DNA of 64,000 nt from positions 189,472,001-189,536,000 of the forward strand of contig CM097885.1 in NCBI GenBank assembly GCA_044892525.1, in the 5' to 3' direction. The notes below the pieces were generated by a model that had not been told where the DNA came from, did not search any database, and saw only the letters and a list, made by a program, of their open reading frames with translations. Shown here piece after piece: positions 18,301 to 64,000 of the stretch. Source of the DNA: Schmidtea polychroa. Lineage: Eukaryota. How positions within the stretch are numbered: the stretch's first letter is position 1; the number at the start of each line of letters is the position of its first letter. The position numbers were made by a program, and so were the translations under genes.

Positions 18301-20698
18301 TTTTATTTTCTAATTGCTTTACCGCGTAGACTAACGTTTGATAATTTTCCGGAATTCCTTACTTCTTTAGAATTTTTTCTTTTACATTTTCAATCTTAGT
18401 TGTTAAACCATTAATAAAATTGAATAAATGAAATAGAAATGAAAATAATTCTTATAAATGATGAGTCATCCAAAGATGAACACACCAACGTGTATTATAG
18501 AGATATTTAACTTTCAAAATTAGGTGTATTATGGCTGTTGTTCCCTGATTAGTGATCTCCTTGTTCCTAGTACTATTAGCGGTATCTTTCTTATTATCGT
18601 TATTATTTACCACATATATTGTGGGTACCAGTTTTTCTCGATTGTTATTTTTCTTTTCATGCGTATTGGTACCATTAGGATTACTAATATTGTTAAGAGA
18701 ATCGTACTGTTTTCATAAATAATAGCATCATTGTGGTATTAATATTGGGAATAGTAATATTATGAGCTCTTTTTGTCATCGCATGTGGGCCGGGTTAGGC
18801 GCTCAAGTTACGGTAAATTAAGACCCTTTTCACGTGTTGGATGCCATCATAAACTTCGGTGGAAAATCACTCAGACACTAAGATGGCATCGGCTTAATAT
18901 TTTCTTAATTTTATTTATTTCATAGACATTATGACATCGCAATCAAATACGCTTAAATCGTACTATTTGCGTGCGGATAAAAACGTACAGAACGCCGGAA
19001 TACAGGAGGAAAACTGACTCATGAAAGAAAAGATCAACCTTCTGGAGGGAATTTGGTTCTCCCCCATTAGATGAAAGAAAAGAACCAACAATAATTCTGC
19101 CTTGAACTTTACCGTGACAGCCTCATAACCGAAAATCGGGCGCAATGAGCTCTAGTACAGGAGCCAAAGAGCTGGCTCTACTAGTCTCCAGATACAAGGC
19201 CATGAATGGAAATACAGTCATTCCCGCACATTCTTGGATGACCGTCAATCTTGCTCCACCCTTAGACCCAGCGAACCCTTCACCAGTGGGCGCTTCATTA
19301 ATCTATCTCAGCGCTCACAAAAAACTACGAAAAACTACGAAATTTATCTAAGGCAGAGATGAATGCCAAGAAGAGCGCCAGGAAGCCAGCCGCTCAGGGT
19401 CAATTGCAAACAGCCGGTGAACAACTCCAACGTACAGTCGAGATACCCGGAGAGGCGTAACTCCTCCTTCTGGAGAATGAATTTCAGCTCGAAGCCTCCT
19501 TGGCGTATATCGATAGGAATGTGTAGTAGAATCCAGCCACACTTAGGTTTTCTGGAGAACACATTGGTATTGAATCCGTTTGTTGTGTTATTGTATTGTG
19601 TAATTTATCAATCCATAATTTGATGTTGTTATTTTCGTTTTTTTTCGATGTTAACTGCTTGAAGCGGGTTGGAAATACTAAGTACTGAACGAAAAGCGTA
19701 TCATACATCTAGCCAGACAATTACAGACAATTACAATGTACAGTGTGAACGAGAGAAATTTTGAGTTTATGCATTTTGAGGTTGATGAATATAGAGCAGC
19801 AGTTCTTCACGTCAGTAGTGTACCTAGACAAATGAATAACCGGCATCAGAATCGTTCCTTCGGGCAACCAGTTTTTGTGAAATAGATGTGATTAACAATC
19901 CACCGTCAGAGAAATAGTAAATTTAAGATTCGCTCTTGTATTCGTCGGAAAATAGGTCTAGGCGCGAATTTTCTGAGAGAAACTGACCCAAGTCGTCGTG
20001 TATCGCCTTTCCCCGAGTTGATATATTCCATGCAGATCTAGCAAATTTCCATAGTTGATTGACATAAACAAAGATCATCCATACGTGAGATTCTAGAGAG
20101 TCAGAACACGCGGCATAAACAGTATAATCTCTGATTGAATAATTATCTTATATTACCGCCCTGTTGAGGAAATTGACATAACATCCGGTATATTTTAGAG
20201 ACGCTCGTAGATTGTTGATGTATTTTATGCGGACAAATCGAAATAAATCACCACATAAACAGGATACATCGCAAACCACCAAATGACAAGTAACAGTAAA
20301 ACGTCATCCCATTTGTGATGATCACGAAATATCCAATAAATTGAGACGGAGTGTAAAGGCTGATAGCAAACCATGATTAAGGCACCGAATCAATCGACTT
20401 CCAAATCTCATTTGATATACATTCGTCATAAAAAAAAATCGGTATCTCGCACGATACAATCCTGATGGTAAATAATCCAGTGAACTTGGATAAGAAGCCA
20501 ATGATAAAAATAAGAGTGAACCGACACACAGTCAATGCGGTGATCGACTCATAAGCAGATGGTACCATAATTGAAGCAAAATTGTTGAATCATCACGAAT
20601 TACAGTCGTTAAAACCGGCAGGAGTATCATTAACAGGAGCAAATGGATCCTCAATAAACGTAATAGGATCATTGTCTTGCCAGATTAAGCTATTTGAC

Positions 20699-21211
20699 TG
20701 TTATGTATTGTTATATTATATTTTTTATGTAGTTTATTAAAATTTAATACGGGTTGCGATTTCAATCGTCACGCGCTGTGTAAAAAAATTTCTAAAAAAA
20801 AACTATATTTCGGAAATAACCAAACGAGATTAAATCGCCAGGACCACATAACAGAGACTTTATTCAACTAGAATTTGAATTACAATATCGTAATCTAGAA
20901 CATTTCAGGCTGGTCTTTGTCCAGTAATTAAAGTACTTATTTTAATTATTTTATGAATAAACGTTCAAAGTTGTATAATCATTATTGTTAATTTATTATT
21001 GCTTATAGTAAATCTTTGTTCACTACAATACACACATTCACCCCAGCTGTCCCGAGACAGTTTATTTACTGGAGACTCGGCTGAGTTCTACAGTATTTCT
21101 TACCACACTAACAAGCATAAATATAAACATAATATATATAATATAATACATATAATATAATACCAATATAATACAATCCAGCATACGATAGAAATAGGAT
21201 AAACCTTAATA
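20699..21211. mobile_element. ~513-bp insertion, probable solo LTR, splitting the protease of the decayed Gypsy copy
   Basis: TGTTA...TAATA termini; 5-bp TSD TTGAC/GTGAC (1 mismatch); protease codons resume exactly across it. Confidence 0.7.
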
Positions 21212-21711
21212 GTGACCAAGAGCTCCATCACGACATTATAGGGATGAGAAGCCTTCCTACAGAATGTCTATTGAGAATGGACATTTTAAAAAGATTAAGA
21301 GGAGTATTTGATTGTGCAACTGGATTGTTAATCCGAGCACGAAGTAAAAAGAGGAAAATTTACAACGACGATACAGCTTATATAGATCATAAAACTATCA
21401 TACAACACAGAGTGGCAACAGTATGCTTTGTAGCTACAAGCAATAGTTGGGAAGGTGAAGTTAACGTCGAAACGGTAAAGAACTTCCCGGAGCCTAAAAC
21501 AGTTAAACATATCAAAAGATTTTTGGGCCTAGTTGGATATTACCGAAAATTCATTAGAAACTTCTCGGTAATAGCTTTCCCACTCACGCAGTTAGAAGGT
21601 AAAAACGTCAAATTTGTGTGGGGAACAGAATAACAGGAAACATTTGACATGCTCAAGGGAAAACTTGTCAAGCCACCTATATTGTGATTCCCAGACTTCG
21701 ACAGACAATTT

Positions 21712-23655
21712 TTGGTTATGACAGATGCCAGCACTCGGGGAATAGGTGCTGCGCTAGGTCAGAGAGATGCAATTGCATACGCTAGCAGAGGACTAGAACC
21801 ACACGAGAGAAATTACGCAGTAATAGAACTAGAGGTTTTAGTAATTGTGTATGCTATAACCCAGTTTAGGAAATATTTGTGGGGTCATTACAGGCCATTA
21901 CAGTGGTTGACGAAACACACAATGGATACCTTAAAACTTGTCAGATGGGCATTAATTTTACAGCCATATGACATAGAAATCCATTACAGAAAAGGAGATC
22001 ATAATGGTAACGCAGATGCTTTATCGAGAATGGACCAGGAGGAAGAAGCAGAAGATGTGAAGGAAGGGTCTTTGGAAGGAACTATCTTCACATTGACCAG
22101 AGAAGCCAACGGGCTAGCTGATTTAATGGAGGCACAAAAATCTGACGAAGAGATCAACGTTATTCGTCAAGCCTTAGAAGCAAAATACGTGCCCACAGAA
22201 TTCACAAAATACTGGGAAAAGAATAAAGATAAGTTTGTGCTGGAGGAAGGATTAGTTAAATATTCAGACGTTAGAGATAACGTTATAATGGTTCATAAGA
22301 AATTTCGTGAAGCACTCAGGTTACTGTATCACGATGGAGCCTTAGGAGGACATCTGTCAACCAAAAAAACGTTGTCGAGATTAAAACAAAATTACTTTTG
22401 GCATATATGAAACAAGACGTTAAAACCTGGTGTCAGACATGTTAGATCTGTATCACCAGAAGAAATACCGGAAAGAAACCCTACGTACCAATGAAGCCCA
22501 TATGAGGTATTGAGAACTACAGATACGAATCTCATACTACAACTGGTAGCCAACCGAAAAGCAGAACCAATAATGGTACATGCAAACCGGTGTAAAAAGT
22601 GTGAAATCCCATCCAAAGGGATCCCAGTAAATTCAAAAGCAATAGAGAAACCGGTGAAACCAAACATTACCGAAGAAGCACAAGGACACTGATACCCATT
22701 GAGATCACGGGGTGTTCCAAAATCAGTCACTTTTATTGTGATAATAATTTGCATGATGACCTTAGCTATTGCAAAAAGGGATAAAGAGGCATATTTTCAG
22801 CCAATGGCAATGCAAGTAGATTACTTACATTTTATAAGAACTTATGACGGAATTCGTATACTCACAACGTGTGATAATGCCACAAAATTCAATCTGCATT
22901 TCTACAATAAGTATTTAAGGGTCCACCAACTTAACTCGCTAGAAAGAGAATGGGATTTATACGATTTAAAAGCTGAGACAGATTACAAAATACACGTCGC
23001 CGCATCAAGGTTATATCAGAGTGGTTGGTATACTTACCACGTATGAAATTGGATACTTAGGAGGGTGGATTTCACAAATCGCATATCGATATCTTACGAA
23101 AAAGATAAAGTAAAGTTTAGTCGACAAATTCGTGGGGAGGAAAATGTAAAGGTCAATTTACTAGACGGACTAACCACGAGAGAACCGGTATGGTTAGATC
23201 ATAGCTCCCCTTCCAAAGAAATGTATCTAAATCAGTCCGTAGAATATTCGGTTCTAGTTATATACTATAGCCCGAAGAAACAGCAAAGCGACATGTGGTT
23301 CGAGGTATTTGAAGAGATATTACCTCTTAGACATCCGGTTACAACGAAAATACCACAAAAAGTAATCAGGGAAAACATGGTGAAACATCCCGTGATGTGG
23401 TAACATCTTAGACAACTACCGCCTATCAAACAAATATCTTGTCAGACGACTCCGAATCTGACGAACTGTTGTGATTGCAATGCCCTCACAAACTTCAAAG
23501 CGGGATACATTCTGAAAGTACCCATAGGGGTATGGATCACGGTGTAGGCAGTATTATCATTTGCGACCACGCTGATAGCTATGGGCATTTGGATCAAGCT
23601 ATATTTTAAACAAGCTATAAGGGCTTACGACAGAGTGCTGATGTCGCAATTATGA
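21712..23655 (+). pseudogene. RNase H, deleted integrase, and signal peptide/Fn3-like/TM tail of the decayed copy
   Basis: ORF pieces 21712-22410, 22699-23046 and 23065-23403 align with the C-terminal half of the 1985-aa ORF. Confidence 0.88.
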
Positions 23656-23768
23656 CAATTACAGACTCCCCCGAGGGAAAAATCATATATAAATATTTAT
23701 ATGATTAAAATAAATAAATATTTATAGCATTAAAATTTAGCATATGTAGATCTTTTATAACAAGACGC

Positions 23769-26700
23769 ATGCATATCTTTTTAGCCTATTATGGCATATC
23801 AGTATATCTGATATTTTGGTTGATCATTTTTATTTCAGGAATGCAGAGTCATCATATATTCCAATATCAAGGAAGACATATACGTGCTAATACCCTACTG
23901 AATGAGAAGCTGATATATAAAAACCTGGAAAGGCAAATAATCGATCAAAGTCGAAAAGGACAACGGCACTGGTTCTACGGCCATTGCTCGGGGATACCAC
24001 ACAACTTTAAATTCGACGAGGCCCCAAAACGCCAAATGATAATAACAAAAATTCCGGGCAAGCGCAATACCAGCATTAGGCTTACAGATGTCATGCCCGA
24101 GTTTGGCAGACATTGTATAACTAACCACCTAGGGTTTCTGAAAAACAGTGGTTTTCAAAAAACAGCTGTTTAACTGTTTCTGATTTTTAAAAAACAGCTG
24201 TTTTACTGTTTTTAATTGTTTTTACTGTTAATAATGTAAGGAAAAAAATTTCAGAGCGCCAAGATCAAAGTTTTCAATCAGATCGAGTGCTTTGAAATCC
24301 TGAAGAGTCTCACTAATTGATGCTTCGGTTTTAATTAACGGTTCAAGCATGGTTGGGATTGAATTCCAGCGTGTTTTCACATCCAGATACAGTTCAATTT
24401 CTCGAGAGTGAATTTGTTTGATTTTTGATTGAAGCACATGATTTCGAACAGGTGAATGTTTGAAGAATTTGACAATCTTGCGAGACTTTTTGAGTATTTC
24501 ATGATAATCGATCTCATTATGGTTTTCATTGATTAATTCAAAATCGGTTGGTTCATCAAAATTATCTTCCTCATTTGAATCTTCATCAATGATGATGGGT
24601 TCTTCAATTTCTGATTTCTTTTTGTACAAAGCATCATATACTCCAAGGTATTGTCTCTTTTCGGTCTGAATTCCATTCTTGGATGTGCTTGGTTCCCCAG
24701 CATGATCAAACTTGATGCCATGCTGCTGTAGATGTCTCTTTAAAGAAGTCGTTGAATTGCCAGAGCACTTAATTATGCTATTGCATCGATTGCATTGACC
24801 TTGAAGCTCTTTTGTGTGCGGATTCCGTCGTTTTGTGGTAAATTCCCAAACAGAAGCCATTACTAATAGAAAATTAATCATTTAAAACAATTAAAACAAA
24901 TTAAAATCGTTGATTTATTACCGAAAATAATTAAATCAGTAAAAATATTTATTTCAGTAAAAGTTGCAATGCTTATTTTATAATGTGAAAATAAACACAA
25001 ACCAGTGCTGTTCATTTATATATAAGTGGTGCTATGTCTAGACGTCTAGACAATGCATTGACTGTTGACCTTGAATGGAAAGCGGTCGCGTTGTGTGGCA
25101 TGTTAAGCAAATGCTGTCCATTGATTTGCCTAGCATATGACGCGAGATAAATGATGCGTAAATGACGGGTTAAGACGATTAAATGACGCGAGACAGGTCA
25201 ATTCAGAAAAAATTGAGAAAAGAACGCTGAATGACGTGTTTTCTGGTTCTTAATGACGGGAAAACCCGTCATTTTTTTAACAGTGAACTTTAAGTTTTAC
25301 TGAAAAACAGTTAAAAACAGTTATGAAAAAACAGCTGTTTGCTGTTTTTGATTTTTTGACGAAAAAACAACTGTTTTACTGTTACTGTTAAACAGTATCC
25401 AGAAACCCTATAACCACCTGTGAATACACGCCATTAACAAACCATTTACGGTTTTTGTTCCTGGCGCCACTAGTCCCATCTTGGTTCAAAAGCATACAAC
25501 CCTCGAAATCGAAAATGAGGATGGGAGAAAAGAATATCTCTCTATTATGTGAAGGAATGGACACCATCGTTGCAATGGAGATCTTAGAACCGGTTAAGGA
25601 GTTACAAACGAGATGGTTCAACGAGCCAAATTGGACGTACAACGTCAACGACAATGATATTAAAACGTTCAAATTTTTTGTGAGGCAACGTTTGGACCCC
25701 AGGCAAGAAGATAATCTTACGATTTACGTTACTCCAATTCCTCAAACTACCAATAGTGGCAATTTCGATTTCACATTTCAACGGCGATTTAATCCTTAAT
25801 ACTAGGGTTACCCCCAGATCACAGGTCAAACACTACCAATGGCACGCACATGGTATGACCGAAAAAGAAGTGACCGGATAGTTCGACGGAGAAGACTGTC
25901 GAAAGAATCAGAAAAATCTGCGATGGGAAAATCATCGTGGGATTGTTAGTGAAGGATCTATTGGAAGTGATTAAATTTCCAATGCAGCGCGCACTCGGAA
26001 TTCGTGAGCTAGGGGCAGCTAAATGCCTCGAATATAGGGACTTTAAGAAATGCAACGGGTATTACTTAGCAAAAACTGTAACAGGAAAAGAGGCGCATCA
26101 TTTCTCTGACCTTCAAACAGAGAATGATGTCACGACTATCAAAGAAATATAGGAAAATCTGCGAGACATCTGGGTTGATGATATTTCACCGAATACCCGA
26201 AAGGATGTGGTCAAGCATGCAGAAAGCCTTAGCTATGGAGAGCTATGTAAAAGAAGACATACACAAGACCAAGCTAATGAAAATAGTGGAAGAAGATTCA
26301 TTGTCGCCGCCAGCTATCTCAATTGCCGACGAGGACGAATATGCCACTTGCGAGAGCGACGACGATAATTCTCTCCAATTCACGCTTTCCAATAATAGTA
26401 GAGTTGTGAATTCAGCTAAAATGGAGACGGAGAAATCACCACCAGCAGACAAACTGGTTGAACGGGTCACCAAGATCTTGAAAGCATTGGCCCCGTTGGG
26501 CGAATCCAAGGGAGGAGCAGAAGGAGGAGCATTACCCCATGCTATAGTCCAACGGCTTAAGCTCCAGGACTTAAAATTCAAAAAGAAAATCACTGTCGAA
26601 CCTATCCAGAAAGAAGCAAGGATTAAGGAGAAAACCGTTCCTACATCTACAAAGAGGAAAAAGGAGATCTCGAAGAGTACCAAAAAGAAAATGTCTCGGA

Positions 26701-27041
26701 TATCCATCCAGGATGAGGACGATGATCTCTTGGAAATCCAATAACAGCCACCAGATCCTGTATTGACCACGATATTGGCAACAAAGGTCGAACCCGTGGT
26801 TGCAGGCGAGCCTATCATCGCGAAAGAAAACGAATTCATTGGTAAAGGCAATTCCATCAATATACGGGAAGATGCTGACAGAGAAGACCCTAGTTGGTGG
26901 CAGAGACCCGATAGTAAATGGAAACCGCGTATCAAGGAATACGATGGGGGTCAAATTCATGAAGTAGGCGTGTCCAACTTCCCCGATTACGGAGTATTGG
27001 AGGCTAATAAGGGCTCTTATATCATTTCAGCTATTGTGTAA
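23769..27041 (+). pseudogene. ORF2 (TM + DEDDh-like exonuclease + charged tail) of the decayed copy, split by a hAT insertion
   Basis: Pieces 23769-24129, 25419-26152, 26124-26744 and 26763-27041; the first three align with 56098-57847. Confidence 0.85.
24130..25410 (-). mobile_element. Non-autonomous hAT element carrying a BED finger fused to a partial transposase
   Basis: TIRs TAGGGTTTCTG/CAGAAACCCTA; perfect 8-bp TSD TAACCACC; ORF 24228-24881 has VWEF..CNRC..SLKRHLQQH and DVKTRWNS. Confidence 0.93.
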
Positions 27042-27421
27042 AAAAGAAGTAAGTACACGGGAGACTTTGGTGGTTAGTTACAGGGCGGATATCGTGGAAC
27101 AAAGGATCCGGAATGAAAGTTCCGAAGTCATGCAGAGAAGGAAATATTAGCAATTCTGCTATGTATTCAACGGACCTAGCTATTTGCTATACGTCCTCAA
27201 GTACCAGCAACTTCGTCAGCCGTCCCAACCCAATCAGTCATTCATTGAACATTTGCTTTATGTGTATATATTTGTATTCTTATATGAACATTGATCGAAC
27301 ATTTAACATTTTGTGATTTGATTTACGATTGCATTATATATTTTATTTTTATTTTTTGGCTGCAATTATCTTGTCTTCACCGCTTTAATTTTCGGGACGA
27401 AAATTTTGTAGGGGGAAGACA

Positions 27422-28173
27422 TTTTGGGGTTCAATAGGAGCCAAGATAAGGACATAAAGAGATTTTAGGAAGGGAACAAAGATAAATTAAAAATAGTATT
27501 TAATAATTACTTAAAATAGAAAATAATTACTATAGTTAGAGTTAAAATATAAATAGCAATAAACAATTACTATATTTAGATTTTAAATAGTAATAGTATT
27601 TTAATATATATAAATACATATAATTAAATAATTACTAAAAATAGATATAGTTGAGTTAAAAAATTATAAATACAGTTACAAATTTTAGTTTAAGGACGAA
27701 CTTAATATATCCAAAAAATGGACGGAAAATAGTAGAATTATAAAGAAGGCTCACAATAAGCAAACAACATTTAAATTTGCGATTAAGTCACATTGAGCAT
27801 ACATTTCAGTGAAATAAATATCGATCGAAAGTTGACAAAACTCATTTGAAATTTTTCAAATTTGGAATAGATAACAACCATTTTCGGGTTTATCTATTTA
27901 ATTTCTCAAGGATATTTGATAAATAATTAGTTAGTTTATTATTTTTATAGCATTAAATATATTTATTTTAAAAAGGGTCTAAGCATCAGTACGGCTTTTG
28001 TTACTGTTTCGCTTCTAGAATACAAGTCTTATCCATTTCTGGGATTAAGACTATAGCGTTTAAATTTTCGGGATTCACCCTAATCTTATTCTTGACACCT
28101 ATATCGGGATGTTGGCGCATTTAGGGCCAGCCTTGATACTTAGTAGTATTCTTCAGGACGGTTTGAATAACCG
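27422..28173 (+). mobile_element. Truncated 3' LTR of the decayed Gypsy copy, preceded by PPT AGGGGGAAGA (27410-27419)
   Basis: Homologous to 54985-55894, e.g. CCTATATCGGG..TGTTGGCGCATTTAGGGCCAGCCTTGAT. Confidence 0.85.
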
Positions 28174-28182
28174 ATATCTGTA

Positions 28183-28247
28183 CTATCTATTATCTATTAT
28201 CTATTATCTATTATCTATTATCTATTATCTATCTACTATCTATTACT
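28183..28247. repeat. (CTATTAT)n microsatellite at the LTR/non-LTR junction
   Basis: Direct 7-bp periodicity. Confidence 0.9.
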
Positions 28248-30771: not shown

Positions 30772-31257
30772 TATATATTTTTAAAAATACCTAATGTGTT
30801 ATCATTAATCCCTAATTCAGTGAGTGTTTGCCATATTAAATTGTGGGGTACACTGCCAAATGCATCTGCAAAAATTCTGGCCGGTGCTACGAATGTTATT
30901 ATCATAAATATTTTTGGACATTTTAGGCTATGCTTGGGTAAGAAAGATTACTTTTTATAATATATTTAATCGTGTCAAGACTCAAACAATTTTCTAGCCT
31001 AAAGTTTTCCGAAACATTTTGATTTCATCATGAGTCTGCTACATACATATAAGTAACATTTGTAAATCGTAACGAAGGGTTTTATAAAGCACTATGTCGG
31101 GTTTCTTATTATCATTATCAATATAGATTTTGAACTTTGACCGAAATAAAGCGTACCTTGACAAGGAAAGCCCATATGTGATTCATAAAGATTAAAATTA
31201 TGAAGTTATGTGTAATAATTTCATTTTTTGAAATCTCGTAAGTGATATGGTCACAAA

Positions 31258-32253
31258 ATGAACCTTTGGTTCACACATTTTAGAATGTTATTTTCAAAAT
31301 ATTATGCCTTTTTATTTGTGATTTGTGTCGTGATAAATTGTCCAAATGCTTTAATAATCCAGCCCCATATAACAGAAAATGTTTCTCATATATTTTGTGG
31401 ATCTCAGAATTTAAAGTTTTACAACCACACTCCATTTTGGTATATAAATAACGAATTAAATCTTTGTGATGGTGAAATATTCTTGCTAACTTACGTTCAA
31501 AGTTCCTCTTGGCATTTTCACAGAAGGGAAATGATTCGTCAAACTTGGGGCTCAATTAAAACGGTTGACGGGTATCCAGTGCGTTTACTGTTCTTGGTTG
31601 GACAAATATCTGACGAGATATTACAAATGAAAGTAAAAAAAGAAATCAAAGATTATCAAGATGTTGTTCAAGCGGATTTCCTTGATACATATAATAACTT
31701 GACTTTAAAACATCTTGTAGCCCTTCACTGGATTCATAATTATTGTTCTCATGCTAAATTCATTCTGAAAACCGATGATGATACTTTTGTCAGTATTTTT
31801 CAAGTGGTTTACTATCTGGCGGAAAACTTCAATCCATTAGAAAAATTTATTCTTGGAAAAATAATAAACAAAGCTAGACCATTTCGAGGAATAAGCAAAT
31901 GGCGCATCTCTAGAGAGATTTATCCAGATGAATTCTATCCTCCATATATAGGTGGAGCGGCTTATGTGATATCCCAAAGTGCGATCTATCCACTTTACGT
32001 GTGTTCGTATTTCCACAAGCCTTTCTATATTGATGATATCTTTATTACTGGATTTATTAGGAAGTTGTCCAATGTCAATTTGAGGAGCTTGGACTGGCAA
32101 TTTGGACCGAAAACTTTATTCCATAAAAGGATAGGTATGAATTGGATGGAGAACTTATTTTTTGTGACCCAATATCGATTTGATGTGGAAATCTGGAAGA
32201 ATTTATGGTCGAATGTCCTCAAAATTGAATTGGAAGATTTTTATGGGTTTTAA
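31258..32253 (+). CDS. Beta-1,3-galactosyltransferase-like glycosyltransferase (GT31, Galactosyl_T), single exon
   Basis: 331 aa; N-terminal TM; RREMIRQTWG, DFLDTYNNLTLK, KTDDD, YPPYIGGAAYV and IDDIFITG motifs. Confidence 0.93.
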   Translation: MNLWFTHFRMLFSKYYAFLFVICVVINCPNALIIQPHITENVSHIFCGSQNLKFYNHTPFWYINNELNLCDGEIFLLTYVQSSSWHFHRREMIRQTWGSIKTVDGYPVRLLFLVGQISDEILQMKVKKEIKDYQDVVQADFLDTYNNLTLKHLVALHWIHNYCSHAKFILKTDDDTFVSIFQVVYYLAENFNPLEKFILGKIINKARPFRGISKWRISREIYPDEFYPPYIGGAAYVISQSAIYPLYVCSYFHKPFYIDDIFITGFIRKLSNVNLRSLDWQFGPKTLFHKRIGMNWMENLFFVTQYRFDVEIWKNLWSNVLKIELEDFYGF

Positions 32254-54984: not shown

Positions 54985-55894
54985 TGTTAGGTTCGATAGG
55001 TAGGTAGTCGAACTAACACAAAAAATCTGACTCCAAATAAATAATTTATGCGTGTAGGTAATAAATAAGAAATATGATTTAAAACGTTTATTAACAATAA
55101 AATTTACAGGATTGTTTATTTTTGTACAAATAAATCACGCTGCTCTCTAAAGGAAAGAAAACGGTTATACAAACCGTCCTGAAGAGTATTTCTAAGAATC
55201 AAGGCTGGCCCTAAATGCGCCAACAGCCCGATATAGGTGAACGGAAAAGAGATAGGGAAGTTTACCAAATTTTTACGCGATGGAGTTAACCCAGAAATTG
55301 GTTAACTCTTTTTCAACAAATATTAATAGCGAAACAACACAAAAATACGTGCTGACGCTATGGCTTCCCTTATTTAAGTTTAATTTAATTTAAACAAATA
55401 AGTCTTTTATGCAAATATTTGATAATTATTTAAATAATTGATAAAACTAACTAATTTGATCTCTTTCTAAAATGGCTCCAAAGAATATTAAACTCAATTC
55501 ACGAATATTCAAAATTAATTCCTATTGATCGGTATATCTAATATCACTTGAAATTCTCCAATCGGATTGAAGTTTTTGAATGAAGTAAAATTCCAATTAA
55601 TTTTCTCTCGCTCGATGAACTTCTGACTATAGTTAAATTCCTAAATTAGTTTTATTTCAGAATCGGATTGATTTTTTCTATCTAAATTTAGCTCCTGTGG
55701 TTTTTTCTTAAATTCACTTATCTCGATTTCGTCCTCCTCGATCAATGAAATTTTTCTGGTATTTATATGACTTTAGTTATATCAAATCTATTAATAGTAA
55801 TTATTAATTACTATTTTTATTGTATATTTATTTTTAGTAATTATTTATTACTTAAACCCAAACTTTTGATTCTGGTTCCTACTGAACCCCAACA
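54985..55894 (-). mobile_element. 3' LTR (910 bp)
   Basis: TGTTGGGG...CCTAACA termini on the minus strand; follows PPT AGGGGGAAGA; homologous to 27422-28173. Confidence 0.85.
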
Positions 55895-56419
55895 TGTCTT
55901 CCCCCTAACAAGATTTTCGTCCCGAAAATTAAAGTGGTAAAGACAAGACAATTGCAGCTGATACATAAAATAAAAATATAAAAATAAAATTAAAACAACT
56001 GAATAAAATATATATAATGCAAGCAAAATCAAAATAAAATAATCAAAGATCGTTCATGAAGGAAATGTTAAACAAAATCAACAATGAAATCACTTAATCA
56101 AATATTGTTCATAAAGTAAATGTTTGTCGATTTGAATAATTGGATTGGATTGAGTTTGTCGAAGGTGCTGGGATTGAGGACGTATAGCAAATTGCTAGGT
56201 CCATTGAACACATAGCCGAATGATGTTTTCTTTTTAAATTTTAGATCTTGTAGCTTAAGTAGTGGTGCTACAGCTTGAGGTAATGTTCCTCCTTCTGCTC
56301 CTTGTTTGGGTTCACTCAACGGGGCCAACGCCTTTAAGATCTTGGTGACCCGTTCCACTATCTTTGCTGCTGGTGGTGATTTTTCTGTTTCCATTTTGGC
56401 CTAATTCACCACTCTACCG

Positions 56420-57847
56420 TCATTGGTATTGGGTGACTTGGAGGCAGTTATCGTCTGCACTCTCACAAGTGGCATAGTCTTCTTCATCAGCAATTGAGAT
56501 GGCTGGCGGCGACAAGGAATCTTCTTCCACTATTTTCTGCAATTTTGACCTGGGAATATCTTCTTTTACATAGCTCTCCATAGCTAAAGGTTTCTGCATG
56601 CTTGAAGTTCCGGGTTCCATCTGCTTTATTTGTGAAGACACCACCTCTTTCCGGGTGTCTGGTGAAATGTCATCAACCCAGATATCTCGTAAATTGTCGT
56701 AAATCTCCTTAATGGTTGTGACATCATTCTCCGTTTGAAGGTCCGAGAAGTGATGTGCCTCTTTACCGGTGACTGCTTTTGCCAGATATGCCAAACGGTA
56801 ATACCCGTTGCATTTCTTTAAGTCCCTACTTTCGAGACATTTAGCTGTGCCTAACTCACGGATTCCGAGTGCGCGCTGGATTGGGAATTTGATTACTTCT
56901 AATAAGTCCTTTACTAGCAATCCCACGATGATTTTCCCATCGCAGATTTTCCTAATTCTTTCGGCACAGTCTTCTCCGTCGAACTGTCCTGTTATTTCTC
57001 TCTCGGTCATACCATGCGCATGCGATTGGTAATGTTTGACCTGTGCTCTGGGGGTAACTCTCGTGTTGAGTATCAGATCGCCATTGAAATGTGAGATTGA
57101 GATGGCCACAATTGCCGGTTTCAGGAATTGTCGTAGTGTAGCGTAGTGAGCTTCTACGAAAATGGTGAGATTATTTTCTTGTCTAGGATCCAAGCGCTGT
57201 CTAATGAAAGACTTAAACGTTTTGATGTCGGTATCATTAACGTTATATGTCCAATTTGGGTCATTAACCCATCTCGTTGGTGTTTCTCTGTGAGGTTCCA
57301 GAATTTCCATTGCTACTATGGTATCTATTCCCTCACATAACAGTGAGATGTTCTTTTCCCTTCCATCCCCGTTTTCAATTTCCAGGGTTGTATGCTTTTG
57401 CAGCAAAATGAGGTTTGTGGCACCAGGAACATAAACCGTAAATGGTTTGTTGATGGCGTGTATCCACAGGTGGTTGGTCAGACTATGTCTGCCAAACTCA
57501 GGCATGACCTCGGTAAGCCTAATACTACCGTTATGCTTGCCCGGTATTCTTGAGATAATCATTTGACGCTTTGGGGCTTCGTCAAATTTAAAATTATTGG
57601 GTATGCCTGAGCAATGTCCGTAAAACCAGTGCCTTTGCCCTTTTCTGCTTTGCTCTATTACCTGCTTCTCGAGGTTTTTGTAAATAAGTTTTTCTTTTAG
57701 CAAGGTCGTAGCACGTATAATGCTATGTCTTCCTTGGTATTGGGATATTGGGTGGCTCTGCATTCCTGAAATAAAAATCATTAACCATAATATCAGATAT
57801 ACTGATATGCCATAATAGGCTAAACAGATATGCATGAGTCTTATCAT
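56420..57847 (-). CDS. ORF2: N-terminal signal/TM plus REX4/ISG20-like DEDDh exonuclease fold (degenerate catalytic motifs); tail continues out of frame at 56098-56394
   Basis: AIVAISISHFNGDLILNTRVTP..VKHY..HGMT..., GKIIVG..KDL, IRE, LAYLA and ENDV..IKEIY parallel REX4 motifs. Confidence 0.75.
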   Translation of the reverse strand: MIRLMHICLAYYGISVYLILWLMIFISGMQSHPISQYQGRHSIIRATTLLKEKLIYKNLEKQVIEQSRKGQRHWFYGHCSGIPNNFKFDEAPKRQMIISRIPGKHNGSIRLTEVMPEFGRHSLTNHLWIHAINKPFTVYVPGATNLILLQKHTTLEIENGDGREKNISLLCEGIDTIVAMEILEPHRETPTRWVNDPNWTYNVNDTDIKTFKSFIRQRLDPRQENNLTIFVEAHYATLRQFLKPAIVAISISHFNGDLILNTRVTPRAQVKHYQSHAHGMTEREITGQFDGEDCAERIRKICDGKIIVGLLVKDLLEVIKFPIQRALGIRELGTAKCLESRDLKKCNGYYRLAYLAKAVTGKEAHHFSDLQTENDVTTIKEIYDNLRDIWVDDISPDTRKEVVSSQIKQMEPGTSSMQKPLAMESYVKEDIPRSKLQKIVEEDSLSPPAISIADEEDYATCESADDNCLQVTQYQ

Positions 57848-57961
57848 AAAAGATCTACATATGCTGAATTTTAATGCTACCTGGAGCTCTACGTAAATAT
57901 AGATTTTAAGATATATATAAATATTTATATATGATTTTTCCCTCGGTGGAGTCTGTAATTG

Positions 57962-60900
57962 TCATAATTGCGACATCAGTACTCCATCGTAAGCCCTTAT
58001 GGCTTGTCTGAAATATAGCTTGGTCCAAATCCCCATAACTATCAGTGTAGTTATTAGTGATAGTACGGCCGATACCGTAATCCATACCCCTATGGGTATT
58101 TTCAGAATATATCCTGCATTAAAGTTTGTGATGGCATTACAGTCACAATAGTTTGTCAGGTTTGGGGTCGTTGGACAAGATATTTGTTTGATCGGTGGTA
58201 ACTGTCTAAGATGTTGCCACATCGCGGGATGTATCACCATGTTCTCCCGGACTACTTTTGGTGGTGTTTTCGTTATAACTGGCTGTTTCAGAGGTAATAT
58301 CTCCTCGAATACCTCGAACCACCTATCGTCCTGCCGTTTCCTCGGACTATAGTATATAACTAGAACCGAATATTCTACGGACTGATTTAGATACATTTCT
58401 TGGGAGGGAGAGTTCTGGTCTAACCATAATGTTTCTCTCGTGGTTGGTCCGTCTAGAATGCTGATTTTCACCTTCTCCTCCCTGCTAATTTGCTGGCTAA
58501 ACTTTACTTTATCCTTTTCGTAGGATATCGATATGCGATTTGTAAAATCCGCCGTCCTTAGTATCCAATTTGATACGTGATAGGTATACCAACCGCTCTG
58601 ATATAACCGTGACGCTGCGATATGCAGTTTATAATCCGTCTCTGCTTTTAAATCATATAATTCCCACTCTTTTTCTTCTGAATTGAGTTGGCGGATCCGC
58701 AAGTACTTGTTGTAGAAATGTAAATTGAATTTTGTAGCGTTATCGCACGTGGTGAGTATGCTAATTCCGTGATACGTTCTTATAAAATGTAAGTGTTCCA
58801 CTTGCATAGCCATAGGCTGAAAATATGCTTTTCTATCCCTTTTTGCCATTGCCAAAGTCATCATGCAGCTTATTATCAACAAAAAGGTTACTGATTTTGG
58901 AACACCCCTTGATCTCAATGGGTATCGGTGTTCTTGTGCTTCTTCGGTAATGTTTGGTTTCACCTGTTTTTCTAGTGCTTTTACTTTTGAATTTCCAGAA
59001 GTTCCTTTTGTTGGGATTTCACACTTTTTACACCGGTTAGCATGTACCATTATTGGTTCTGCTTTTCTGTTGGCCACAAGTTGTAATATGAGATTTGTAT
59101 CTGTGGTTCTCAATACCTCATATGGCCCTTTGAAATTTCGCATGAGTTTTGGTGATAAGCCTTTCTTGTTATAATGACTTTCCAACATCACCTGGTCTCC
59201 AACCAATATGCCATGATCCTTGGCTTTTCTGTCATGATAATCTTTGGATGCCTCCTGATTATATTTTATACTGAGGCCTGCTCTAGCCCATGCTTCCTGC
59301 ATTCTTTCCCTCATTTCCATTAGATAATCTTCCTGGTCTAAATACTGTGTTGCTTTAGGGAAAAACAACAGATCTACTGGCATTTTACTTTGCCTTAAGT
59401 ACATTAGGTAAAATGGTGTTTTACCTGTTCCTTCGTGCACTGCATTCCTGTATGCAAATAAACAGGATGGAATGTGGATGTCCCAATCCGTTTGCCCTGA
59501 ATTTACATATGATGCTAACATATTAGCTAATGTTCCATTAAATCGTTCTACTAGCCCATACGTCTGTGGGTGATATGGGGAAGTATTCAGCTTTAAAACT
59601 CCAAAATAATCATTTATTCCTTTGAGCAAATTACTCATGAAATCAGCTCCCCGATCCGTTAATAACTTTGTAGGTACTCCATACCTAAAGACGATTTGTT
59701 CAACGAAGATTCTAGCTATTGTATCAGCTTTGTGATTAGGCATCGGGTAGGCTTCTGGCCACTTCGTCAAGTAATCGCAGAACACTAAAATGTACTTGTT
59801 TCCGCTATTAGATTCTTTGAATGCCGTCATTTCCATAGGTGTAGATGGTACTGGCATCGGCTTCATTGGTACGTGTGGTTTCTTTCCGGTGTTTCTTCTG
59901 GTGATACAGATCTTACATGTCTGACACCAGGTTTTAACATCTTGTTTCATACCGGGCCAAAAATATTTTTGTTTTAGCCTTGACAATGTTTTTCTAGATG
60001 ACAGATGGCCTCCTAAGGCTCCATCGTGATACTGAAACATGAGTGCTTCACGGTAATTCTTAGGAACCATTATAACGTTATCTCTTACATCTGAGTATTT
60101 AACTAATCCTTCCTCCAGCACAAACTTGTCTTTATTCTTTTCCCAGTATTTTGTGAATTCTGTGGGCACGTATTTTGCTTCCAAGGCTTGACGAATAACG
60201 TTGATTTCTTCGTCAGATTTTTGTGCCTCCATTAAATCAGCTAGCCGGTTGGCTTCTCTGGTCAATGTGAAGATAGTCCCTTCGAGACGTCCTTCCTTCA
60301 CATCCTCTGCTTCCTCCTCCTGGTCCATTCTCGATAACGCGTCTGCATTTCCATTATGATCTCCCTTTCTATAATGGATTTCTATGTCATATGGCTGTAA
60401 AATAAATGCCCATGTGACTAGTTTTGATGTATCCATTGTGTGTTTTGTTAACCACTGTAATGGTCTATGATCGGTGTACACTATGATCTTTCGACCCGAA
60501 AGATAAGTTCTAAACTGGGTTATAGCATACACAATTGCTAAAGCCTCTAGTTCTATCACTGCGTAGTTTCTCTCGTGCGGTTTTAACCCTCTGCTAGCGT
60601 ATGCAATTGCATACTCATCTCCTAGGTCATCTCTCTGACCTAGCACAGCACCTATGCCCCGAGTGCTGGCATCTGTCATAACTAAAAATTGTCTCTCAAA
60701 GTCTGGAAATCGCAATATAGGTGGCTTGACGAGTTTTTCCTTGAGCATATCAAATGCTTCTTGCTGTTCTGTTCCCCACACAAATATGACGTTTTTGCCT
60801 TCTAACTGCGTGAGTGGAAAAGCTATAACCGAGAAGTTTCTAATGAACTTATTATAGTATCCAACTAGGCCTAAAAACCCTTTGATATGTTTAACGGTTT

Positions 60901-63900
60901 TAGGTTCCGGGAAATTCTTTACCTTTTCAACATTAGCTGGATCGGGTTTAACCCCGTCTCGTGATATGATATGGCCAACATATACCACTTCTGGTTCAGC
61001 CCATTTACATTTGGTTGGTTTCACTTTCATGTTGGCGTTGATCAACCTCTTGAATACATCTTCTAAATGTTCCAAGTGTTTTTCCAAATTTGGCGAGAAT
61101 ACTATGACGTCGTCAATGTATACCATCGCATGATGTACATCCATGAGCATCAAATTCATTGCTCTTTGAAATGTGGCTGGAGCTCCTGTGAGTCCAAATG
61201 GCATTACGTTATATTCGTAATGACCCATACTCGTAGAGAACGCTGTTATTGGTATAGTCTCATCTTTTAACTTAATTTGATAGAATCCCTTTTGGGCGTC
61301 CATTACTGAGAAGAACCTAGCATTTCTCATACGTCCATAGATATAATCTAACAATGGCAATGGATGGCTATCTTTGCATGTTGCTTCATTAACCATGCGA
61401 AAGTCGTTACATAATCGTACTGATCCATCCTTCTTGGCCACCACTATCATTGGTGATTGATATGGTGATTTACTATGCCTGATTATGCCATGTTTTAACA
61501 TCAATTCCACCTGTTTATCTACTGATTCCTCCAGACTGAATGGAATACGGTATGGTCTCAACTTTATAGGTTTTGTATTGGTGAGAACAATCTCATGTTC
61601 TAACAAGTTTGTTTTTCCCAGATCGTATTCATGTTTTGCGAATACCTGGTCATATTTCCTCAATAGCATATTTACTTGGATGTTTTCCTTTCTGGTTAGC
61701 ACTTTGCTATTTGCCGTAGGTGCATCGTAGTACTCAATGTCTGGATCTCTTTCTTCTGCCTTTACGGTGAGTATCGACCCTTCTCCCGTGGCTTGTGGCT
61801 CGTTTTGTTTCCAGATTCTGCCCACTCTGGTATTTGGATATAAGTAAAGTGGTTTAATGTCCAGATTGGCTACCCTGATTGGTATTCTGCCATTGACTAT
61901 TAAACCTACGCTATGAGTAACTGGTATGTTGTATTTCTCCGAAAATCTTTCGTCTGGTTCGAATACAACTTCACCTTCCCAATTATTGCTTGTAGCTACA
62001 AAACATACTGTTTCTGCTCTGGGTGGTATGATAGTTGTATGATCTATATAAGCTGTATCATCGTTGTAAATTTTTCTCTTTTTACCTCGTGCTCGGATTA
62101 ACAATCCAGATGCACAATCGAATACTACTCCTCGTAGTCTTTTTAGGATGTCCATACCCAATAGACATTCGGCTGGGAGACTTCTCATCACTATGATGTC
62201 GTGATGGAGCTCTTGATCACATAGCTTAATCTGGCAAGATAATGATCCTATTACATTTAATGAGGATCCGTTTGCTCCTGTTAATTTTACTCCTGCTGGT
62301 TTTAGCGACTGCAATTCATGATGGTTTAACAGTTTAGCTTCAATTATGGTACCATCTGCTCCTGAGTCTATCACCGCATTAACTGTATGTCGGTTCACTC
62401 TTATTTTTATCATTGGCTTTTTATCCAAATTCACTGGGTTATTGACCATCAAGATAGTATCGTGCGAGATGCCGACTGTATTGGCTCTCGTTTGTTCTGC
62501 TTCCAGTAATTCAGGATCACTCAGTTGAGGATTATACTCTTTAAATTTAGCTTTAATTGAATCTAACGCTTCCTTTGGATAGTGCACTTTAGGTAATTCT
62601 GGCAATGTTGAGCATGTCAAATTATTAAATATGGTATCTTCACCGATTTTCCATTGGTGTCGTCCTGTTCTGAGTGTTGTTTCCCTTGAATGTTCCCGCC
62701 CTTCGTTTGGTGAGGATGGTAAACTCCTCAGAGTTTGCAATTGTACATATCTTGGGCTTCTCTTGAATCTGGGTGACCTTAAGTCGTATTTTTGGTCGGA
62801 ACTGTCATATTCTCCTTCTGATGACTGTTTTTTCACGTAGATTTCCTTTGATTGGTCATATGGAGGAAGATATTCCTTAAATCTCGATTTTCTTTGTTGC
62901 TGAATCGGTTTTTTGTTGTAGTTCTGTTTTCGTGATTGATTTGATCTTGAGGATGTTTCACGAGAGCCTCCATTACCTCCTCCCTTAGAATTGTTATCGT
63001 CCCGATAACTAGAATACTCCTCCATTTCTGTTCCAATTACTTCATGTTTGACCAAATGTTTCTGTCTAATTTCTTTAATTTCCTTTCTGTGATGTTTGAA
63101 TAATGCAAACTCTGCACACATAGGACATAGTCCTAATAGCAGTTTCCATGACCATCCTCCAATTTTGAATATGCTATATGTTGACATCAGTTGTGTAATT
63201 ATCAGCTTTAAAATTACAAATATTGCGTAAATTTCTGAACATCCCGCAACGAATATACCAAAATTGGTAAATCGTCCCCATATTTTCATCATTACGTTCT
63301 TTGCTGCTTCTTTATAGTGTTCCGGTCCAAATAATAGATTGTAATCTGGTCGTATTAAGCTATCATGATAAATTGTTCTTATAATTTGCGTGATACCTCT
63401 GTCTCTGATTTGTGGGAATAGCAATGTTCTACTTGCTTCCTCGATATCGTCGGGAGTGTAAATCCCTCCTTTTGCTAATTCGTCCAGTGACTTGAATTCC
63501 AGATTATCTTTTAGTTTAGTTACCTCCAAGGTCTCTACCCGTTGTGTAGATGGTTTTCTTTCCGGCAGGGATATCCACATGTCATTTATTTTGTATAATG
63601 GTGATATTGCCGGGTTGCATATAGCTGGTTGAGGTTTAGCGTTTTCCTCCAGTAACTTTCTGGTTACAGGCATAACAAATCTCAATTTTCCCTGGTAAGA
63701 CACTGGCAGTTCTAGAGTGCACTGATTAAATCTGGCTAATTGTACTTCCACTGGTTTACACTCATAGCTATATATAGCTTCCCCCATGATTCTGCCAAAC
63801 ATTCCGTCTTCCAATAACATTGGAGTAACCAACTCTGGGTTAACGATAGATCTATTTCTGACTATTTCACAATTTAACTTGCAATCGTTTAGTATCACCT

Positions 63901-64000
63901 CTTGATACATATCCTGCATTTGTCCTTGGAGGTCGTGATATAAATAATCTACTTTATTATTTATATAATTCGTGATTTTGATATCCTTTACGTGTAAGAC
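57962..64000 (-). CDS. Polyprotein: chuvirus-like glycoprotein + TM, linker, protease (~62130-62410), RT (YIDD ~61109-61120), RNase H, integrase, signal peptide, Fn3-like ectodomain, TM
   Basis: 1985-aa ORF; I translated the 27 upstream codons to 64000 and they are also open; motifs VIDSG, LDAQKGFYQ-like, YIDD, TDAS, IELEAL, TDH, H..GH..CxxC, TDRG, VERFN, GPY. Confidence 0.93.
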   Translation of the reverse strand, partial: VLHVKDIKITNYINNKVDYLYHDLQGQMQDMYQEVILNDCKLNCEIVRNRSIVNPELVTPMLLEDGMFGRIMGEAIYSYECKPVEVQLARFNQCTLELPVSYQGKLRFVMPVTRKLLEENAKPQPAICNPAISPLYKINDMWISLPERKPSTQRVETLEVTKLKDNLEFKSLDELAKGGIYTPDDIEEASRTLLFPQIRDRGITQIIRTIYHDSLIRPDYNLLFGPEHYKEAAKNVMMKIWGRFTNFGIFVAGCSEIYAIFVILKLIITQLMSTYSIFKIGGWSWKLLLGLCPMCAEFALFKHHRKEIKEIRQKHLVKHEVIGTEMEEYSSYRDDNNSKGGGNGGSRETSSRSNQSRKQNYNKKPIQQQRKSRFKEYLPPYDQSKEIYVKKQSSEGEYDSSDQKYDLRSPRFKRSPRYVQLQTLRSLPSSPNEGREHSRETTLRTGRHQWKIGEDTIFNNLTCSTLPELPKVHYPKEALDSIKAKFKEYNPQLSDPELLEAEQTRANTVGISHDTILMVNNPVNLDKKPMIKIRVNRHTVNAVIDSGADGTIIEAKLLNHHELQSLKPAGVKLTGANGSSLNVIGSLSCQIKLCDQELHHDIIVMRSLPAECLLGMDILKRLRGVVFDCASGLLIRARGKKRKIYNDDTAYIDHTTIIPPRAETVCFVATSNNWEGEVVFEPDERFSEKYNIPVTHSVGLIVNGRIPIRVANLDIKPLYLYPNTRVGRIWKQNEPQATGEGSILTVKAEERDPDIEYYDAPTANSKVLTRKENIQVNMLLRKYDQVFAKHEYDLGKTNLLEHEIVLTNTKPIKLRPYRIPFSLEESVDKQVELMLKHGIIRHSKSPYQSPMIVVAKKDGSVRLCNDFRMVNEATCKDSHPLPLLDYIYGRMRNARFFSVMDAQKGFYQIKLKDETIPITAFSTSMGHYEYNVMPFGLTGAPATFQRAMNLMLMDVHHAMVYIDDVIVFSPNLEKHLEHLEDVFKRLINANMKVKPTKCKWAEPEVVYVGHIISRDGVKPDPANVEKVKNFPEPKTVKHIKGFLGLVGYYNKFIRNFSVIAFPLTQLEGKNVIFVWGTEQQEAFDMLKEKLVKPPILRFPDFERQFLVMTDASTRGIGAVLGQRDDLGDEYAIAYASRGLKPHERNYAVIELEALAIVYAITQFRTYLSGRKIIVYTDHRPLQWLTKHTMDTSKLVTWAFILQPYDIEIHYRKGDHNGNADALSRMDQEEEAEDVKEGRLEGTIFTLTREANRLADLMEAQKSDEEINVIRQALEAKYVPTEFTKYWEKNKDKFVLEEGLVKYSDVRDNVIMVPKNYREALMFQYHDGALGGHLSSRKTLSRLKQKYFWPGMKQDVKTWCQTCKICITRRNTGKKPHVPMKPMPVPSTPMEMTAFKESNSGNKYILVFCDYLTKWPEAYPMPNHKADTIARIFVEQIVFRYGVPTKLLTDRGADFMSNLLKGINDYFGVLKLNTSPYHPQTYGLVERFNGTLANMLASYVNSGQTDWDIHIPSCLFAYRNAVHEGTGKTPFYLMYLRQSKMPVDLLFFPKATQYLDQEDYLMEMRERMQEAWARAGLSIKYNQEASKDYHDRKAKDHGILVGDQVMLESHYNKKGLSPKLMRNFKGPYEVLRTTDTNLILQLVANRKAEPIMVHANRCKKCEIPTKGTSGNSKVKALEKQVKPNITEEAQEHRYPLRSRGVPKSVTFLLIISCMMTLAMAKRDRKAYFQPMAMQVEHLHFIRTYHGISILTTCDNATKFNLHFYNKYLRIRQLNSEEKEWELYDLKAETDYKLHIAASRLYQSGWYTYHVSNWILRTADFTNRISISYEKDKVKFSQQISREEKVKISILDGPTTRETLWLDQNSPSQEMYLNQSVEYSVLVIYYSPRKRQDDRWFEVFEEILPLKQPVITKTPPKVVRENMVIHPAMWQHLRQLPPIKQISCPTTPNLTNYCDCNAITNFNAGYILKIPIGVWITVSAVLSLITTLIVMGIWTKLYFRQAIRAYDGVLMSQL

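Follow-up and report, generated by a model that had tools for sequence, protein, structure and literature searches.

The window, as the whole stretch of 64,000 nucleotides of Schmidtea polychroa DNA analysed here will be called, contains on its minus strand the 3' part of a retroelement of ~14 kb, which extends from position 54985 out of the window. The element is a Ty3/gypsy errantivirus with the GAG-ENV-POL arrangement and a gB-type env, and it carries an additional gene, ORF2, between pol and the 3' LTR. The features of this element and of a second copy of the same family are as follows.

54985..55883, minus strand: 3' LTR; over 869 nt, it shares 99.7% identity with the 5' LTR at L031:5094-6042, beyond the window
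56221..56665, minus strand: first part of the ORF2 low-complexity tail (acidic/basic), which is interrupted in this copy, the last ~180 codons being absent after 56221 (tblastn, blastn gap)
56666..57187, minus strand: REX4/ISG20-like DEDDh exonuclease fold with one of five catalytic residues (sequence profile, AlphaFold model, alignment columns)
57287..57763, minus strand: predicted 2OG-Fe(II) oxygenase/AlkB double-stranded beta-helix fold, from Met 57763, with conserved His 57460 and Glu 57307 (models, alignment columns)
57962..64000, minus strand: 3' part of the polyprotein, i.e., a gB/chuvirus-type env piece, protease, RT, RNase H, integrase, a membrane module and the tail MSQL-TGA (ORF list, Pfam)
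20432..28184, plus strand: another copy of this family, older and decayed, with arms 79-91% identical (inverted repeats, tblastn)

All traits of the errantivirus type were found in the element: two LTRs, a tRNA primer site, gag, and a gB-type env before PR-RT-RH-IN. Pfam domains matched in the polyprotein are Monjiviricetes_fusion (6e-55), RVP, RVT_1, RT_RNaseH and rve. In the adjoining stretch L031, the 5' LTR is followed by a primer-binding site, TGGTGAGCCCGACGTG, which we take to be of the tRNA-Trp type, and then by gag with CCHC knuckles. A genome search with ORF2, in which 105 of 1261 candidates were scored, yielded at least 107 matches, mostly 93-97% identical; the element is recent and multi-copy.

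The window copy itself is defective. The reading frame at 56420-57847 on the minus strand, from which the initial annotation started, is present in the ORF list, but its end at 56420 is a break of this copy: ORF2 counts 513 codons here vs. 761-763 from stop to stop in open copies, a frameshift lies near 56430, and tblastn with an open copy gave no match in the window copy for residues 581-762. The element is also damaged elsewhere, with an early stop in gag and frame breaks in the gag-env interval before env. This interval contains, just past the window (L031:2536-3696, minus strand), a stretch that looks ubiquitin-like by eye and has no Pfam match. In the second copy at 20432..28184, ORF2 is interrupted by a hAT-like insertion at ~24200-25400 (ORF 24228-24881). 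Amid decayed hAT, BEL/Pao, LINE and Gypsy pieces, the window further holds a single-exon, host-like ORF on the plus strand (31246-32253), which by eye resembles a beta-1,3-galactosyltransferase.

Behind the integrase, the polyprotein continues (57962-58903, minus strand) with a hydrophobic segment, a beta-rich region that appears FnIII-like by eye but has no Pfam match, another hydrophobic segment and a short tail; the two hydrophobic peaks lie at 58903-58847 and 58093-58037. Similar second membrane modules, also without a Pfam match, are found in sister families at L053:3-2246, L065:263-1039, L071:1-1233 and L072:1-1131. The tails of these modules end in ETEV, ETFV or ETWV in the sister families and in MSQL in the window, all of which resemble class I PDZ-binding ends.

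The two domains of ORF2

The initial annotation proposed a REX4/ISG20-type DEDDh fold in ORF2, and matches at the level of sequence, profile and AlphaFold structure bear this out. The sole PDB sequence match of the exonuclease domain is ISG20L2 (E 0.016), and the family profile matches ISG20L2 at 5e-32 and ISG20 at 2e-18. An AlphaFold model of 57763-56657 (pLDDT 92.5, pTM 0.89) superimposes on ISG20 (1wlj) with Z 18.1 and rmsd 2.9 over 162 aligned residues, the next row having Z 14.5, and Foldseek gave a match to 7yw5 at 4e-9. A Pfam run on the window protein detected no exonuclease.

The catalytic site of this fold is degenerate. The ExoI motif DxE had been read as FVE; degenerate it is, but the register was off by two, as FVEAH pairs with FMDAE of intact relatives. 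In this alignment, the first ExoI acid corresponds to the Glu at 57154 and the second to a His at 57148. The column of the first acid contains Ala in 71, Ser in one and a gap in three of 76 copies, the Glu being found in the window copy only, and in 71 of the 76 the two ExoI acids are replaced by Ala and His. Two other observations, that the GH before the ExoII Asp reads GL and that the ExoIII His is missing, were correct, the latter residue being replaced by Leu. The ExoII acid column also holds Leu (56905), so that the Asp at 56725 is the sole catalytic residue left. Instead of the DEDDh set of four acids and the ExoIII His, the five catalytic columns thus give E/H/L/L/D for the window copy and A/H/L/L/D for P0001 and other copies.

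A decisive question is whether other copies of the family have an intact site, in which case ORF2 would be an active nuclease that is only mutated in the window. None of the copies examined has: identical dead motifs were found in 30 of 30 loci, wherever the frame reaches them, and none of the 76 copies is intact in the ExoI columns. The reading of a merely mutated window copy is therefore rejected. Across the exonuclease domain, dN/dS is 0.06 (11 open copies of 761 codons compared with 7 of 762-763), from which it follows that the dead fold is maintained by selection. The proposal of a conserved pseudonuclease is therefore supported, as the loss is also common to a wider clade (see below), and the second domain of ORF2 is, as far as its residues tell, apparently non-catalytic in the window lineage.

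A search of 1.84 billion representatives produced 72 relatives of ORF2 at 21-35% identity, many of them with Pfam RNase_T. By word-indexed protein search, a single protein retrieved no relative of ORF2 and a profile retrieved one, already known; metagenome contigs queried with P0003 gave no related locus. Exonuclease domains were compared for 79 proteins, 68 of which had enough coverage, 11 being dropped. Among the 68, 35 possess all five catalytic residues (one of these is a cellular REX4), three are truncated, and 30 retain two or fewer. In a quick tree with long branches, a branch of SH-aLRT 97 separates 29 of the 30 degenerate domains from all others; the remaining one, L063, represents a separate loss outside this dead branch. 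The tree and the alignment columns show that many relatives retain the full DED/E-H-D set and that the window lineage has lost the set and retained the fold. The intact version of the nuclease is also encoded by other LTR families of the same genome, at the same position behind pol.

Two equal-scoring relatives of ORF2, L063 and L064 (G000:C1:206877063 and 206979271), have the degenerate columns D/T/K/L/K. Upstream of them (L137), no ORF of at least 200 aa is found in 10 kb; possibly, they represent a domesticated or orphaned gene. At the other end of ORF2, the last ~40 aa in P0001, P0002, P0003, P0008, P0016, P0018 and L065 form a small conserved C-terminal module of beta-strand-like character. 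In the region of this module, codons 661-762, which are missing from the window copy, dN/dS is 0.11 with low dS.

The ~180 aa in front of the exonuclease, previously called an unknown domain, are recognisable in the model as a 2OG-Fe(II) oxygenase/AlkB fold (Z 10-11). Residues 1-159 of the two-domain AlphaFold model match 2OG-Fe(II) oxygenases, and in a separate model of the N-domain (pLDDT 90.9), the best VIA matches were the prolyl hydroxylase P4H 2jij (Z 11.0, rmsd 3.8, 143 residues aligned), OsALKBH1 (10.8), ALKBH6 (10.7), ALKBH7 (10.4) and ALKBH3 (10.2). With P4H and ALKBH1, 6, 7 and 3 tied within 1 Z, the subfamily stays at the level of this group. The top 38 VIA rows all belong to the 2OG-oxygenase superfamily or its fold relatives, with Z 8.1-11.0 and ~130-150 of 186 residues aligned. 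Foldseek matches of the N-domain were weaker (best 8e-4), with cupins intermixed, none of the 72 relatives has a Pfam oxygenase match at E 0.01, and a search of the Atlas returned no usable match for the N-domain, P0008 giving RNase_T clusters only. No viral structure spanning both domains was among the 50 matches listed.

The strands expected to bear the iron triad were placed by what we take to be the general layout of the fold. On this placement, a single row of 41 has H-x-D/E in the strand-II region, and four have a His in the strand-VII region. Other positions are conserved across proteins with intact and dead nucleases alike, i.e., His 102 (36 of 41 rows) and Glu/Asp 153 (40 of 41). The dN/dS of the N-domain is 0.07. 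Without sign of an iron triad, the N-domain is apparently non-catalytic throughout the family, and ORF2 is predicted from these models to combine two enzyme folds, AlkB-like and ISG20-like, both lacking catalytic residues but strongly conserved.

The junction between pol and ORF2

Junctions were aligned for 76 copies, some of them near-duplicates (83 were supplied, and seven were left out for incomplete junctions), and all junction contexts, including those of sister families, were drawn from this one genome. The stop-to-stop frame of ORF2 opens right behind the pol stop, 66 codons ahead of an ATG at 57763, so that a spacer of 198 nt lies between pol and ORF2. It contains the following features.

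57956..57964, minus strand: pol stop TGA followed by CAATTA, which matches CARYYA, with a direct repeat of CAATTA just before the stop
57924..57931, minus strand: predicted TATA box of an internal promoter, with TATATAAA in 51, TATATAAC in 15 and CATATAAA in 6 of 76 copies (the window copy has TATATAAA at 57931)
57896..57902, minus strand: predicted initiator, CTATATT in 71 of 76 copies, with its A at 57900, 31 nt past the TATA start
57766..57880, minus strand: predicted 115-nt 5'-UTR intron, CAG/GTAGCA ... TTTCAG/GA ATG; all 76 copies have an intact acceptor, and 70 of them have the donor 9-mer

The start previously assigned to ORF2, an ATG at 57847, exists in only 10 of the 76 copies, whereas the ATG at 57763 is found in 75; TTTTTATTTCAGGA directly precedes this codon position in all 76. 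The position of the start bears on the membrane anchor that had been ascribed to the protein. A hydrophobic segment does exist as a translation (57829-57773, Kyte-Doolittle 2.13), but it precedes the ATG at 57763, after which the hydropathy maximum is 1.54. The four closest relatives start with near-homologous sequence at Met 57763. When 37 of the 72 relatives were aligned, 28 of the 36 with a conserved Pro were found to start 30-70 residues ahead of it (54 here), the starts being automatic gene calls, and a hydrophobic stretch ahead of this Pro was seen in one of the 36.

The spacer codons, moreover, evolve as if free of protein constraint. The ratio of shared synonymous to non-synonymous changes is 4:11 in the spacer vs. 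57:29 in the end of pol and 149:38 in ORF2. The spacer has a dN/dS of 1.49, a value of limited power given the few sites, and a dS of 0.015 vs. 0.24-0.30 in the domains and the linker. Third positions vary at 7 of 66 codons in the spacer vs. 182 of 421 in the coding flanks (Fisher 1e-7). Since third positions rarely vary and the changes are mostly non-synonymous, the constraint on the spacer is on the nucleotides and not on a protein. The claim of membrane anchoring thus lacks support on two counts, as the codons concerned show no protein-level selection and coincide with the predicted intron, which contains the whole hydrophobic stretch and six ATGs, among them that at 57847. The supposed anchor is probably, judging from the junction alignment, a translated intron; possibly, the hydrophobic stretch persists as a readthrough isoform only. 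Open frames that run by chance through the introns of sister families also yield hydrophobic-looking leaders (L142, L147).

The predicted promoter and intron recur outside the window family. The sister lineages L065/L139 and L072/L148 have a CCAAT and a TATA with an A at +31; a GT donor is also present, and the AG that closes the predicted intron, of 119-126 nt, lies 2-6 nt upstream of the ATG. The A at +31 is missing in L071 and L053, and no clear intron was found in either. A rule requiring both donor and acceptor, framed after the sequences had been inspected, is satisfied by 3 of 1742 background ATGs. The predicted donor, GTAGCA, is weak, and the predicted intron is 15-fold more conserved than synonymous sites, which is unusual and not fully explained. 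Two sequence patterns for spliced retro-copies gave one match, apparently a point variant, and none. For L075, an internal-deletion copy without the predicted local donor, and four read runs (two presumed to be RNA), none of the 15 joints listed lies at the acceptor. The predicted internal promoter of L065 shares GTTAACTCCAT with the window LTR (~55280-55310); maybe, this is a start-site motif.

Expression, function and known counterparts

We consider it moderately likely that ORF2 is a conserved accessory gene, in which AlkB-like and ISG20-like domains have been kept without their catalytic residues and which is expressed, likely from an internal promoter, as a soluble protein whose first residue is Met 57763. 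The TATA and initiator in the 198-nt spacer would start a subgenomic RNA, and once the 115-nt intron is spliced out, neither an upstream ATG nor any of the hydrophobic codons would remain; the product, of ~695 aa in full copies, would then be devoid of a membrane anchor. The protein would consist of the 2OG-oxygenase-like domain, the DEDDh domain, a low-complexity tail with basic clusters and the small C-terminal module, in this order, and would be soluble and probably nuclear. In the intact families, it may act as a 3'-5' exonuclease with an oxygenase-fold module that binds nucleic acid or a partner. In the window lineage, the dead protein might hold RNA 3' ends, or partners of host nucleases of the REX4/ISG20 type, and such binding without cutting could shield element RNA from host surveillance. 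This last step, by which we infer a nuclear RNA-binding decoy against host RNA surveillance, is the weakest and is offered tentatively, the odds being against it. A still broader picture, that of a retroelement counter-defence gene in which an oxygenase-fold RNA reader and an ISG20-type nuclease are joined and which has a promoter of its own, with an old split into active and decoy lineages and with the decoy made here in both a soluble-spliced and a readthrough-tethered form, seems unlikely to hold in full.

ORF2 could instead, or in addition, be made by readthrough of pol at UGA-CAAUUA, as an extension tethered by the last helix of the polyprotein and the hydrophobic spacer; we regard this as unlikely, though as the strongest of the competitors. 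If true, it would rescue the reading of ORF2 as an anchored pseudonuclease, and readthrough and spliced forms could coexist. The CARYYA motif is known from tobamoviruses and can stimulate UGA readthrough, according to PMC3542737, and expression of env via stop suppression was reported for SIRE1 (PMC2829016). In line with readthrough, all 76 copies have a single in-frame TGA with CAATTA, and in 66 of them the spacer can be read in the frame of pol without meeting a stop (as can 50 of 20000 shuffles); the only shared indel of the spacer measures 3 nt, and low synonymous variation past the stop is also expected from a readthrough RNA element. The invariance of CAATTA, however, says little, because hardly any position of the spacer varies and the motif duplicates the hexamer directly ahead of the stop. 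The lack of protein-coding constraint in the codons after the stop, within the limited power of that comparison, argues against readthrough, and so does the RNA structure: a stem predicted over the spacer was rejected, with z -1.27 and 12 shared variants that break pairs and none that compensates. The junction, furthermore, is absent from every sister family examined. Sister families in this genome have ORF2 in another frame than pol or separated from it by stops. In L053 (775-codon frame), the open frame of ORF2 overlaps the end of pol by 52 nt in the -1 frame (L053:2195-2246), with no clear slippery site; this open overlap counts against the internal-promoter reading. As the spacer has a single clear hydrophobic peak, readthrough would also place the domains on the lumenal side.

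The same soluble protein would result if ORF2 were spliced onto the same acceptor from a donor near the 5' LTR/leader, or trans-spliced, and an internal promoter would then be dispensable. The acceptor is indeed the best-conserved and most widely shared of the signals, and the region of the primer-binding site has a donor-like G/GTGAG. Yet the CCAAT/TATA/+31 spacing and the local donors recur in independent lineages, and no genomic copy with a foreign exon fused to the acceptor was found, although the latter is a weak test; such distant splicing appears improbable. With regard to function, the conserved His 102 and Glu/Asp 153 of the oxygenase-like domain could form a non-canonical metal site, in which case ORF2 would have unrecognised catalysis and would not be a pure decoy. 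Their conservation across intact and dead nucleases fits this idea, whereas the scarcity of the canonical H-x-D/E and of the distal His in the same 41 rows speaks against it, and we give it slightly less credence than distant splicing. A soluble, spliced product of a conserved accessory gene remains the reading we prefer. In that case, the Gypsy element would have an unusual expression route, by way of an internal promoter and a 5'-UTR intron predicted to lie behind pol and ahead of the 3' LTR, and a translated AT-rich intron can mimic a membrane anchor.

Parts of this arrangement have precedents. The GAG-ENV-POL order was described for errantiviruses of flatworms, nematodes and bryozoans (PMC13524379), and the element resembles the HSV/gB-type flatworm errantiviruses, as presented there, in its LTRs, CCHC gag, gB/chuvirus-type env before pol, length of ~14 kb and many young copies. 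Compared by eye with the lists of that paper, its env is nearest to Smed_errantivirus_4, and the env of L136/L138 to Smed_errantivirus_1. The main text of PMC13524379 contains no occurrence of 'nuclease', 'readthrough' or 'fibronectin', and the membrane module after the integrase and the ORF behind pol are undescribed in it.

As for the accessory gene, ORF2 is like ISG20, ISG20L2 and REX4 in fold and sequence profile, and its relatives match RNase_T and keep D-E-D/E-H-D. It differs from these proteins in being element-encoded, in its fused oxygenase-like domain and in having, in the window lineage, one of five catalytic residues. The initial annotation drew a comparison with exonuclease cargo of rotifer LTR elements, and the analogy holds to the extent that ORF3 of the bdelloid rotifer elements Juno and Vesta is likewise an accessory ORF of 3'-5' exonuclease type downstream of pol (PMC5408684). 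It is a loose one, since ORF3 is described there as RNase D-like DEDDy with an intact DEED, and no fused oxygenase fold is reported in the pages concerned (PMC5408684). ORF2, in contrast, is of the DEDDh type, with active and dead lineages; its intact relatives have the ExoIII His and match RNase_T. A 2OG-oxygenase-fold accessory ORF also has a precedent in a Gypsy element, i.e., the AlkB ORF of orchids, which is reported to be recent, recognisable by sequence and active as an m6A demethylase (PMC9289625). The oxygenase-like domain of ORF2, on the other hand, was recognised by structure only, at 4-13% identity; it is fused to a nuclease fold, and nothing in it points to an iron triad. Thus, exonuclease cargo (rotifer LTR elements), AlkB cargo (orchid Gypsy) and the flatworm errantivirus type are already known, and a literature search, with subscription papers, Repbase and the original Burro/SLF genome paper outside its scope, revealed no description of the two-domain ORF2 gene.

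Among viral proteins, the N-terminal domains of vaccinia C16 (PDB 8ag3) have the same fold class as the N-domain of ORF2 (Z 8.7, rmsd 3.5, 132 residues aligned), ranking 26th among the oxygenase folds. C16 is itself not known to be catalytically active. The likeness is an analogy and does not imply a common origin. C16 binds and inhibits the host protein PHD2 (PMC7693908).

The accessory genes of envelope-bearing retroelements of invertebrates are almost unstudied. A single genome here offers a natural pair, i.e., nuclease families with complete and with dead sites, at the same position and under strong selection, so that two questions can be put to the test: how an exonuclease fold benefits an LTR element, and whether the dead version works as a decoy. 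One of the sister families with an intact nuclease encodes, in addition, a Bcl-2 domain between gag and env (L138:1860-2498, plus strand; Pfam 6e-6, under the curated cut-off); a Bcl-2 domain was also reported for Burro elements (PMC6431247).
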